A stretch of 64,000 bases of DNA from contig CAUUHY010000003.1 of NCBI GenBank assembly GCA_963545265.1, forward strand, positions 25,918 to 89,917, written 5' to 3'. This DNA is from an uncultured Eubacteriales bacterium. GTDB taxonomy: Bacteria > Bacillota_I > Bacilli_A > RF39 > UBA660. The notes beneath the pieces were generated by a model. The model was not told where the DNA came from, ran no database searches, and worked only from the letters and a program-made list of their open reading frames with translations. Within the stretch, counting starts at the first letter, position 1. Each line of letters starts with the position of its first letter. Positions 39,269 through 42,200 of this stretch are shown one piece after another. The position numbers and the translations under genes were made by a program.

Positions 39269-42200
39269 ATGAATAATAGTTTAATTGATATAATTATAGG
39301 AAAAGAAAGAAAAAGATATAATCAAATTATTAAATTAATAGAAGAAAAAAATTACAATATATTATTTGATATGGATGAAAATCAAAAATTTGGATTAACT
39401 AATCAAAAATATATAAATCGTATTTTAGCTAGAATGGAACAAGAAGTTTCTAATAATCCAGAATTCTTAATACAGATGAATCAATATTGGTATCATAGGG
39501 CTGATTATTTTAATAGAATTGCTATAAAATCAAATCCTAAAATTGTTGAAAATTTTATAGAACAAAATATTCTACAATCTTATAAATTAATATCGATGGC
39601 TTTAGACAATGGATATGTTCCATCTAGTGATTATATTAATACTAATTTTACAAATTTTTCTACTGTTGAGATTATGAAAAAATTAATTGATATAGGATAT
39701 AGACCAACAAATGAAATAATTGAAAGGTATAGTAAAATTTTTTCTAATGAAGAATTATTTGTAAAAGCATTAGATTTTGGATATATTCCATCGTTGGAAT
39801 TTATTACTAGAACAAATTTATTAAATAATTCTAATTTAGTTGATAGAGTACTTGATACTATTGAACTTACACCAGAAGTTATTAATAGTCAAATTTTTTA
39901 TGGCAATCAAAAAGCACAACAAAAAATTATAAGTGAAAGACCAGATTTGCTTTTGGTGATGAGTAATCATAGTCCTGCTTTTGAACAATTTTGGATTGAA
40001 GCATTTAAGCAAGGTTATATTCCCAAAGAGATTTTAAATAACTATACAATAACTGGTAATTTTTTACTTTTCTCTAAAATTGTTAAGCAAAATCCAGAAA
40101 TGATTAAATATTGCAAGATAACAGATAAAGAGCAAAAAAAACAAATTGACGAACTTGCTTTATGTATGGGATACATTCCTAGTTTAAGCGATGGACAAAA
40201 TAGTGAATATGTAAAAAAAAGCCCAAAATTAATGCATGCATTAATACTTCAAAGACCAGAGGCAATTAAGTATATTGAAACAGAAAATGAATTTTTTGAT
40301 TTAGTTCGTTTATCACTTGATTATGGCTATATACCTACATTAAAAGATATAGAATATAATCCTAGATTAGCTGATAGTTTTGATATTATGAAAATTATGA
40401 TTCAAGATAATCCAGAACTAATTAATATAATTAGATATACAACTCAAAATAAAGAAGAATTATTAAAAATTGCTATTAAAAATGGTTTTAACGGGACTAT
40501 TATAGGAAAATATAAAGGTACTGAAGATTATTATAATAAATTGTTGTACACAGAAACTGCAATAATGTATCAATTAGATAAAGGTCAAAAATTAAATAAC
40601 ACTATTCAATATGGTAATAATTATACTATAAATCTTTATGATTATTTGATTAAAAAGGGTTATAAAACAAAAGAAATTATTAATTTGTTTAATTCCAACT
40701 ATGAAACAATGAAAAAAATTATATCTAAAAATCCAGAATATATAACTAGTTTAAGTAAAAATTTATCAAGAGAACAAATTGATGAATTAGGTTTACTTGC
40801 TATTGAAGGTGGTTATGTTCCAAAATTTGATGATGAAATATTTGGCTATGGTTACGAAACTGCAAAAATTATGGTTAAAACTTACCCTGAGTATTTAGAA
40901 AAAGTTAATTTATTTGATCGAAATTCACTTTTCTTAGTTAGTCCTTTTTCAGGTTATGATGAAATTTGTAAATTAGCTATAGATGCAGGTTTTATCCCAA
41001 ATGTAGAAACAATGGGAGATGGTTATGGTGGATTGACTATAACGAAATATAACTATAGTTATGATATTATGAAGAAAGTTATACCTTTAAAACCTAATTT
41101 AATTGAGGCATGTTGTGTTTCAAATAAAACTCAATATGATGAATTATGCCGTTTAGCTATATCTTGTGGATATGAAATAACAAATAAAACTGTTCATGAA
41201 GGAAATAAAATGTGTTCAAATTATGATCTAATGGCAAGATATATTTCTAAATACCCAAGTTTTTTATTAAATGTTGAAATAACAAATTCAGAGGAGATGT
41301 TAAAATTAATTGATATATCAATAAAATCTGGTTTAAAACTTAATAATTTAAATAAAAACCAATTGTTACAATTATTTTTATCTGTTGATGAAGACAATTG
41401 GCCTAACTATTTAGATGATAAGACTATGGATTTTTTAAGAAAAACAAAAAGATTATATGTTAATAATGATGAGATTTCAAATACCATAAATCCAAGATTT
41501 TTGTCAGATGAAATAACTAATCATTTTACAAAAGCTCAAGTTGAAATATTATCTTGTTATCCAAATTTACAAGAAAAAATATTGAATTTATCATCTAACA
41601 GCCCTAATGATAAAATAATTTATGAGTTAGTAGACAAATATAAGAATAATTTAGAGTGGACATCTATTTTAGAAAAATCTTTAGATAATCTAAATTCTTC
41701 TGAATATGCTAATTTGCTTTCATCAATAAATGGTAAAGAATTATCGTCAGAAGAAAAAGAAAATTTAATATATTTATTAATGACGAATAATCATTTAGAT
41801 ATTTCAAGTTTTGAAGAATTAAAAAATATAGATTCTATAAGAAAAAACTATATAAATATGCTTATAAAAAGAAATACTATAGGTAGTTTAAAAAGTGCTT
41901 ATTTTGAAAAGACTTTTGGTATTGATTTACCAACAGCTATTAATTTAGTAAATTTATATGGAAAAAGCTTAGAAAGTAACACAATAAATAATTTAGATGA
42001 AAAAAGTAGATCAGAATTTATTTTACTTGAGAATATGAAAAAAATTATTAATTTAAATAATTTAGAAGTATTAAAATATTATGTTAAAAATATTAATCCA
42101 GAATTTATAGTTAAACCAGATTTAATGGTTACTTATGAAGCAAAGTTAAAATACTTGTTTACTCAAGAATTTAATAAAAGTTTTACTAAGCCACTTCAAG

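Follow-up and report, generated by a model that had tools for sequence, protein, structure and literature searches.

An array of about ten divergent tandem helical repeats occupies the N-terminal part of a 1610-residue protein, which is encoded on the forward strand at positions 39269–44101 of a 64,000-nucleotide stretch of contig CAUUHY010000003.1 (assembly GCA_963545265.1, positions 25,918 to 89,917) from an uncultured Eubacteriales bacterium. That whole stretch is hereafter called the window. The reality of the array is confirmed by profile comparison of its units, and our comparisons with catalogued families support placing it in the DUF4116 superfamily, as a divergent 'GYxP' branch in which the two halves of the unit appear to have differentiated into an NPE type and a GYxP type. 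We favour, with moderate confidence, the reading that the array folds into an alpha-solenoid at the N-terminus of a large, cytoplasmic enzyme with several domains, most likely as a recognition or scaffold module, a role that we infer.

DUF4116 comprises uncharacterised repeats of 49 residues found in bacteria, protists and giant viruses, and we know of no function for it. The array is a variant of this already catalogued repeat type and will not surprise a specialist. Its significance lies in being a divergent branch of DUF4116 type with fixed copies and unit-by-unit conservation, found joined to metal-dependent phosphoesterase domains of two different kinds; it thereby offers a handle on what such solenoids bind, in the form of a bacterial enzyme that can be purified either complete or with the solenoid removed. 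In practice the gain is modest: a 'hypothetical protein' that is widespread among uncultured gut Bacilli can be better annotated, and attention is drawn to a Cys-rich domain in the same chain.

Identification of the repeat array

A preliminary description of this DNA had placed about 12 repeats between positions 39570 and 41340, an interval that corresponds to residues 101–691 of the 1610-residue open reading frame (ORF). All 12 anchor strings that it listed were located in one reading frame, at residues 112, 140, 168, 246, 298, 350, 403, 461, 512, 571, 631 and 685, and the ORF holds the entire array. Successive anchors are separated by 28, 28, 78, 52, 52, 53, 58, 51, 59, 60 and 54 residues. 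The motif G[YF]xP occurs eight times and is confined to residues 115–577, against a mean of 0.14–0.17 and a maximum of three in 2000 shuffles of the sequence.

Pairwise comparison of the repeat region with itself by BLASTP gave no off-diagonal match because the repeats are too divergent, and profile methods were therefore used. From an alignment of 34 homologues (A1) a separate profile was made for every putative unit, and all profiles were compared with each other using hhalign. Putative units 1, 4, 5, 6, 7, 9, 10, 11 and 12 scored 30–53 against one another (P 1e-7 to 1e-12), whereas control segments, which were non-repeat parts of the same protein with composition and alignment depth equal to those of the units, reached at most 23.6 against a unit (192 comparisons) and 18 against another control (120 comparisons). 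A hidden Markov model (HMM) built from a single unit (residues 470–520 with its orthologues) recovered six other units on the first pass and converged at ten.

These controls bear directly on the explanation that the periodicity is a composition artefact of proteins rich in Lys, Asn, Ile and Tyr in a genome of 23% G+C. Both the extreme AT-richness of the genome and the lack of internal similarity in pairwise BLASTP speak for such an artefact, but same-composition segments do not exceed 23.6 where unit–unit scores are 30–53, the motif is about 50 times as frequent as in shuffled sequence, and the array is picked up by an HMM whose source proteins belong to other organisms. We regard the artefact as refuted by these controls.

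At the level of DNA, Tandem Repeats Finder detected no array repeating at close to 160 nucleotides and the only in-register matches measured 15–39 nucleotides, which agrees with the original view that the repeats exist in protein sequence alone. The array is likewise real as proposed, but the count of 12 does not stand: there are ten significant units, anchors 2 and 3 sharing one of them and anchor 8 lying outside any unit.

Anatomy of the array

The unit core measures 44 residues, with the consensus FFSNYEIMKKLIKKNPELIEKVSEENSEEYDELIKLALDNGYIP, and consists of two half-repeats. In the AlphaFold2 model each half is a helix of ~10–13 residues, a turn and a helix of ~6 residues, and the pattern long-short-long-short runs throughout all units. 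The first or 'A' half turns at a Pro (NPE) that is invariant across units, and the second or 'B' half at an invariant Gly that is followed by Y-x-P. The elementary period is the half-repeat of ~22–28 residues, and the solenoid comprises ~21 half-repeats paired into ten units. It is because of this elementary period that the first three anchors stand only 28 residues apart, unit 2 having GYxP in both of its halves. Linkers of 5–20 residues, one of them with a beta-hairpin insertion, bring the distance between unit starts to ~49–69 residues, rising to 77 after unit 2 owing to intervening extra helices.

A sub-motif NPE[YML]I had been reported before most repeats. In this literal form it is present in three units only, but the looser [NRYK]Pxx[ILV] is found in all ten, and additionally at residue 63. 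The array therefore begins at about residue 46 (nucleotide 39404), upstream of the 39570 first given, and as a whole extends over residues 46–700 (39404–41368; forward strand, as for every feature of this gene), where the HMM units, the AlphaFold2 model and the motif scan together delimit a predicted all-alpha solenoid. It opens with a leading half-unit (residues 46–83; 39404–39517) with an NPEFL turn, recognised by the motif at residue 63, by helices at residues 46–62 and 64–72, and by an in-register DNA match (D4).

The ten significant full units that follow were each identified with the unit HMM. Unit 1 (residues 84–118; 39518–39622) ends in GYVP, and the halves of unit 2 (133–174; 39665–39790) end in GYRP and GYIP. 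Unit 3 (210–253; 39896–40027), unit 4 (262–304; 40052–40180) and unit 5 (317–357; 40217–40339) precede unit 6 (369–407; 40373–40489), in which the anchor has decayed to NGF. Unit 7 (474–519; 40688–40825) is the most canonical and contains the best natural-sequence match to DUF4116 in Pfam; unit 8 (525–577; 40841–40999) carries a beta-hairpin insertion of ~15 residues in the AlphaFold2 model; unit 9 (594–635; 41048–41173) provides, as YDELCRLAISCGY, the segment nearest to the DUF4116 consensus in the profile comparison; and in unit 10 (649–688; 41213–41332) the anchor has decayed to SGL. Between units 6 and 7, residues 408–473 (40490–40687) include anchor 8, IKKGYKTKE, and do not score as a unit with either hhalign or the HMM. 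In the model this segment contains a beta bridge and has a lower predicted local distance difference test score (pLDDT); it resembles an insertion or a decayed copy.

Predicted structure

The AlphaFold2 model of residues 1–760, made from a 34-sequence alignment, has a mean pLDDT of 88.5 and a predicted template modelling (TM) score of 0.60; nearly all of the array exceeds a pLDDT of 90, and the model contains short helices only, except for two small hairpins. A helical, solenoid-like fold is accordingly predicted with high confidence, as the preliminary description had expected, and the best Foldseek matches are alpha-solenoids. Among experimental structures in the PDB, nothing matched the model at an expectation value (E) of 1e-3 or below (best E 5.9e-3, TM-score at most 0.22), the top, non-significant matches being HAT-repeat spliceosome proteins, mitoribosomal and designed PPR proteins, exportins and designed repeat proteins. 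Among predicted viral structures (BFVD), the best five matches were all giant-virus entries named 'DUF4116 domain-containing protein' (E 8.5e-6 to 1.5e-3, probability 0.99–1.00).

Relationship to DUF4116

Pfam searches with the whole protein and with fragments, at E values up to 10, returned no match to TPR, Sel1, HEAT, ARM, PPR or ankyrin repeats in the 1610 residues. The HEAT/ARM/TPR likeness first proposed for the array is not borne out, and the nearest family is DUF4116 (PF13475), the sole repeat family listed by Pfam for the natural sequence (residues 478–499, E 0.1–0.7) and also the Pfam family that scores highest on the consensus unit. A concatenated consensus unit raised the scores of dozens of unrelated Pfam families, and that result is not used as evidence.

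A HMMER search of 1.84 billion representative proteins with a unit profile (A2, 99 units) produced just 87 matches, and of the 40 that are not orthologous 17 contain PF13475 at E <= 0.001 (best E 6e-50). When short matches of this profile were scanned one by one in Pfam, seven of ten exceeded the DUF4116 gathering score. One high-scoring match with 19 stretches (P0131) was rejected as a false positive, being a tandemly repeated helicase fragment.

From the seven proteins above the Pfam threshold, and solely from these, we built an independent DUF4116 profile and HMM. The unit profile aligned with it over 34 columns with a probability of 96.6% (hhalign, P 6.5e-10), five individual units scored 28–40 (maximum 39.6) against 9.5 or less for non-repeat controls, and when the 237 ORF fragments from the window were scanned, the 1610-residue ORF was the sole significant match (E 2.3e-9). 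The DUF4116 consensus from the seven proteins, ELCKLAVKKNGDALKYISDIEQTEEICKLAVQQNGYALQYV, has the same doubled helix-turn-short-helix plan as the array, in which YDELCRLAISCGY and YDEICKLAIDAGF are the nearest segments. Within a protein A37 is common to 83% of units and L33 to 70%, and this Leu and Ala before the turn are what we take to be the conserved residues of DUF4116. The family has previously been described as an alpha-solenoid in a contact-based model (PMC8078820). There is no solved DUF4116 structure in the PDB for comparison, and none of the orthologues listed has a precomputed PF13475 annotation.

Together with the giant-virus matches of the fold search, this evidence supports the view that the array is a GYxP branch of the DUF4116 superfamily whose halves have become distinct. 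The preliminary description had named, as the outcome that would tell against it, similarity to some repeat family already known and of annotated function, and half of this applies: the nearest relative is indeed a known family, but one without a function, and the likeness lies below the Pfam threshold.

Age, copy number and selection

The gene has 144 homologues, of 58–97% identity, and nearly all are full length (1590–1650 residues). Among the 34 homologues examined for repeat number, over the same range of identity, each protein has 9–11 detectable units and mostly ten, and two homologues at only 42–46% identity (L012 and L014) still have ten. The comparison of repeat number that had been proposed thus shows a stable array. 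Identity between orthologous units averages 66%, and that between a unit and the others of its own protein 26% (maximum 51%); the residue most often found at a core position is, for most positions, present in 70–90% of orthologues, as against 25–45% of the units within one protein; each unit therefore has its own identity.

Comparison with the DNA of two close strains, 97% and 93% identical, gave a ratio of nonsynonymous to synonymous substitution rates (dN/dS) of 0.47–0.58 in the array and 0.12–0.19 in the C-terminal HD domain, and values below one everywhere. Amino-acid differences between strains cluster at residues 400–450 and 550–650 (approximately nucleotides 40466–40618 and 40916–41218), that is, in the degenerate segment, loops and insertions; these two intervals hold 21 of the 44 differences from the strain that is 97% identical. 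Averaged over 33 homologues, identity to the query amounts to 0.66 in the array and to 0.86 in the Cys-rich domain. Purifying selection acts on the array, yet no part of the protein evolves faster. That the repeats are old and selected, as originally supposed, is upheld by the retention of about ten copies down to 42% identity, the excess of orthologous over paralogous identity and a dN/dS below one.

The remainder of the protein

Downstream of the array is a helical region (residues 701–990; 41369–42238) that is not detectably the same repeat, as judged from the hhalign controls and the model. The next part, at residues 991–1180 (42239–42808), is a Cys-rich domain that is the best conserved part of the protein in the alignment, with the motifs EPDDYYxxWN, SHGCCCSY, LGTA, TRHTHNExVWERR and KKQPSY. 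It found no match in Pfam (its consensus included), the PDB or PADLOC, a search for relatives gave only fragments of orthologues, and AlphaFold2 models it poorly (pLDDT ~30).

The chain closes with a putative HD-superfamily phosphohydrolase domain (residues 1381–1530; 43409–43858), recognised from Pfam, precomputed annotations, the alignment and Foldseek. H1389, H1421, D1428, H1464, D1503, D1505 and D1508 are invariant, and D1422 nearly so; H1389, H1421, D1422, H1464 and D1505 make up the putative metal ligands. Pfam HD (PF01966) scores 19.9 bits on the query with a cut-off of 22, and PF01966 is among the precomputed annotations of many orthologues. The best Foldseek match of the domain is 2pq7 (probability 1.00, target-normalised TM-score 0.68, E 0.017), followed by phosphodiesterases and YpgQ; sequence searches of the PDB gave nothing save a marginal HD match by family profile. 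On balance we consider the C-terminal domain a member of the HD superfamily, though the score of the query itself is sub-threshold.

One alternative is that the array reads nucleic acid in the manner of PPR, PUF or mTERF proteins; it would then lead the HD domain to RNA or DNA, where this would serve as a phosphodiesterase or nuclease. The HAT-repeat spliceosome proteins and the mitoribosomal and designed PPR proteins among the best PDB matches favour it, as do a weak mTERF match in a retrieved relative (P0135) and the fact that some HD domains are nucleases, and ten individually conserved units would suit a sequence code. Those structural matches are non-significant, however, and the HD domain is closer to small-nucleotide hydrolases and cyclic-nucleotide phosphodiesterases than to Cas3. 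The array is also mildly acidic, with an isoelectric point (pI) of 5.6, a net charge of -7 and charges of -2 to +2 on single units, whereas the solenoids known to bind nucleic acid are basic; its acidity is a slight argument for a ligand that is a protein or a small molecule and not nucleic acid. We think a nucleic-acid reader rather unlikely.

A second architecture with the same repeats

The GYxP branch is not restricted to proteins with an HD domain. In a second group of proteins (P0136–P0142 and P0146; 1270–1540 residues), 6–10 N-terminal GYxP units are combined with a C-terminal calcineurin-like phosphoesterase domain (Metallophos_2), and BLASTP aligns these with the query at E 6e-18 over ~560 residues. 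The one host examined has such a gene (L074, 5001–9626) on a contig of 22% G+C, with an overlapping 55-residue ORF downstream. The position of GYxP repeats before two different catalytic domains suggests a portable targeting module for phosphoesterases.

Proposed role of the array

We propose, in line with the binding use first suggested, that the solenoid would provide a recognition or scaffolding surface for a macromolecular partner or substrate, more probably protein than nucleic acid, and that binding there could position or regulate the Cys-rich domain downstream and the C-terminal HD domain, a putative metal-dependent phosphohydrolase. The recognition or scaffold role is put forward because conservation is specific to each unit, because copy number is fixed and because the branch has been re-used with a second, unrelated phosphoesterase domain.

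Several observations weigh against this reading. In Pfam, DUF4116 scores 9.9 bits on the whole protein and 12.7 on a fragment, which does not reach the gathering score of 24.9, and an artificial consensus unit attains 20.5 bits (E 3.4e-4), likewise below it; by Pfam's own criterion the array is not a member of DUF4116 and is not filed as one. TM-scores to the giant-virus DUF4116 models are only 0.14–0.21, meaning that the local geometry of the repeats matches and the overall superhelix does not, which would be consistent with solenoids of different curvature. The acidic pI is weak evidence on the type of ligand, there is no conserved neighbour hinting at a partner apart from a 75-residue ORF described below, and we know of no ligand, partner or activity for the 1610-residue protein or for any DUF4116 protein. 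Finally, distant relatives with 25–30% identity over residues 700–1575 keep the Cys-rich and HD parts, differ in the N-terminal region and have at most one detectable unit. To judge from these sequences, the array would be either dispensable for the catalytic core or diverged past recognition in them.

The same relatives, which replace or lose recognisable repeats and keep the catalytic core, lend some weight to the possibility that the array is mainly architectural, acting as a rigid spacer or oligomerisation arm with no specific ligand; the relaxed constraint on it relative to the catalytic parts (dN/dS ~0.5) points in the same direction. A spacer would not need the unit-specific identity that was found (70–90% agreement among orthologues against 25–45% among units), nor does it account for the re-use of the repeat branch with a different catalytic domain, and we judge a purely architectural array improbable.

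A recognition or scaffold module remains our preferred reading, and it can be extended, as an unlikely proposition, to the idea that GYxP solenoids are arms for recognising the substrate or partner in an undescribed class of giant phosphoesterases in AT-rich gut Bacilli of apparently small genome, where an interchangeable HD or calcineurin-like end would cooperate with the Cys-rich domain. If true, DUF4116-type repeats would for the first time be set in a functional context, namely bringing a phosphoesterase to one particular macromolecule, which might belong to a host or partner cell.

Genomic context and host

The gene for the 1610-residue protein has a GGGAG ~12 nucleotides 5' of its ATG. 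The window is ~23% G+C and carries nearly all of its genes on one strand; TGA serves as the stop in four out of 25 long ORFs, which shows that the standard bacterial code is in use. The window carries mutS and the housekeeping genes nusA, infB, rbfA, dnaE, polC, dnaG and sigA, with an L28-like gene on the minus strand, and by these surrounding genes the window is bacterial chromosome, neither phage nor plasmid. A tblastn search of a phage collection found zero relatives of the protein. It matched nothing in NCBIfam, and the PADLOC models of anti-phage defence matched neither it nor the relative L016 nor P0137. Its only Rfam matches show the window to contain three clustered tRNA genes, at 61912–62160 on the minus strand.

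Homologues of the gene are found in metagenome-assembled genomes that are mostly labelled 'uncultured Bacilli' in a species-level genome collection, with human, rabbit, mouse and ruminant gut as sources. We take the host of the window to be an uncultured, very AT-rich member of the Bacilli living in the gut. The longest contigs that bear a homologue measure 0.47–0.56 Mb, and given this the host genome may be small; a genome of 0.5 Mb would devote ~1% of its length to this gene.

Comparison of neighbourhoods shows that only one neighbour is conserved with the gene across species: a 75-residue ORF (44091–44318, forward strand; 41–67% identity), which overlaps the stop of the 1610-residue gene by 11 nucleotides and has no Pfam match. 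The flanking genes are otherwise shared only with strains that are 93–97% identical. Around orthologues of 80% identity or less (L001–L014) the flanks are wholly different within 6 kb, and the genes found there occur nowhere in the 64-kb window, which suggests either extensive rearrangement in the lineage or relocation of the 1610-residue gene.

Immediately upstream, at 35269–38786 (forward strand), are two adjoining membrane proteins of 426 and 742 residues, which have no Pfam match. The larger is weakly similar to MMCAP2_0566, a conjugal-transfer family of Mycoplasma integrative and conjugative elements (41 bits, cut-off 90), and the pair is syntenic with the 1610-residue gene only in the strains that are 93–97% identical. 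At 30413–31105 (forward strand) a 230-residue ORF has sub-threshold matches to ankyrin repeats (E 0.003–0.005) and is possibly a second eukaryote-like repeat protein in the window. Three further ORFs of 956, 638 and 642 residues (14926–17796, 24830–26746 and 26808–28736, forward strand) have one match each to bacterial thrombospondin type-3 repeats, near the Pfam cut-off (22.6–27.2 bits against 25), and are otherwise without recognisable features; possibly they are surface proteins paralogous to one another.

This setting raises the question of an exported effector, whose 'eukaryote-like' repeats would target the host cell, eukaryotic or bacterial, on which a bacterium of reduced genome depends. 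DUF4116 is abundant in the giant viruses of protists, as our search of viral structures illustrates, and also in protists and host-associated bacteria. The ~0.5 Mb contigs, the low G+C content, the ankyrin-like ORF, the weak conjugal-transfer match just upstream and the rapid evolution of the repeat region, with strain differences clustered in loops, all fit such a role. Set against this, the N-terminus has no signal peptide, transmembrane segment or recognisable secretion signal, length and copy number are strictly conserved with dN/dS below one throughout, the upstream membrane proteins are not co-conserved in other species, and the gene sits amid nusA, infB, rbfA, L28, dnaE, polC, dnaG and sigA. 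We hold export as an effector to be distinctly improbable and retain the cytoplasmic recognition or scaffold module.

Comparison with known systems

DUF4116 resembles the array in three respects. Its unit also consists of two half-repeats of ~22–25 residues, in both of which a long helix is followed by a turn and a short helix; a hydrophobic and Ala pattern precedes the turn in both (ELCKLAVQQNGYAL in DUF4116, YDELCRLAISCGY in the array); and it too forms tandem arrays of comparable length. In the array, by contrast, the two halves have diverged into an NPE type and a GYxP type, linkers and insertions stretch the 49-residue unit of DUF4116 to a period of 49–69 residues (outside the degenerate segment and the extra helices), and the Cys of the 'ELC' motif is retained in few units only.

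Like TPR/HAT, PPR, HEAT/ARM and Sel1 repeats, the array consists of tandem antiparallel helices whose predicted stacking gives an elongated solenoid. It differs from all of these in having four helices per unit (10, 6, 12 and ~5 residues) rather than two or three in 34–47 residues, and from PPR or PUF repeats in being acidic. At the other end of the chain, the C-terminal domain appears to share the HD fold and the H...HD...H...D metal ligands of stand-alone HD phosphohydrolases such as 2pq7 and YpgQ of B. subtilis (5dqw), which are proteins of ~170–200 residues without a solenoid, whereas here the HD domain closes a chain of 1610 residues. The GYxP-Metallophos_2 proteins bear the same GYxP repeat branch at the N-terminus; the remainder of these proteins is unrelated to the query, with no Cys-rich domain and a Metallophos_2 end in place of the HD domain.

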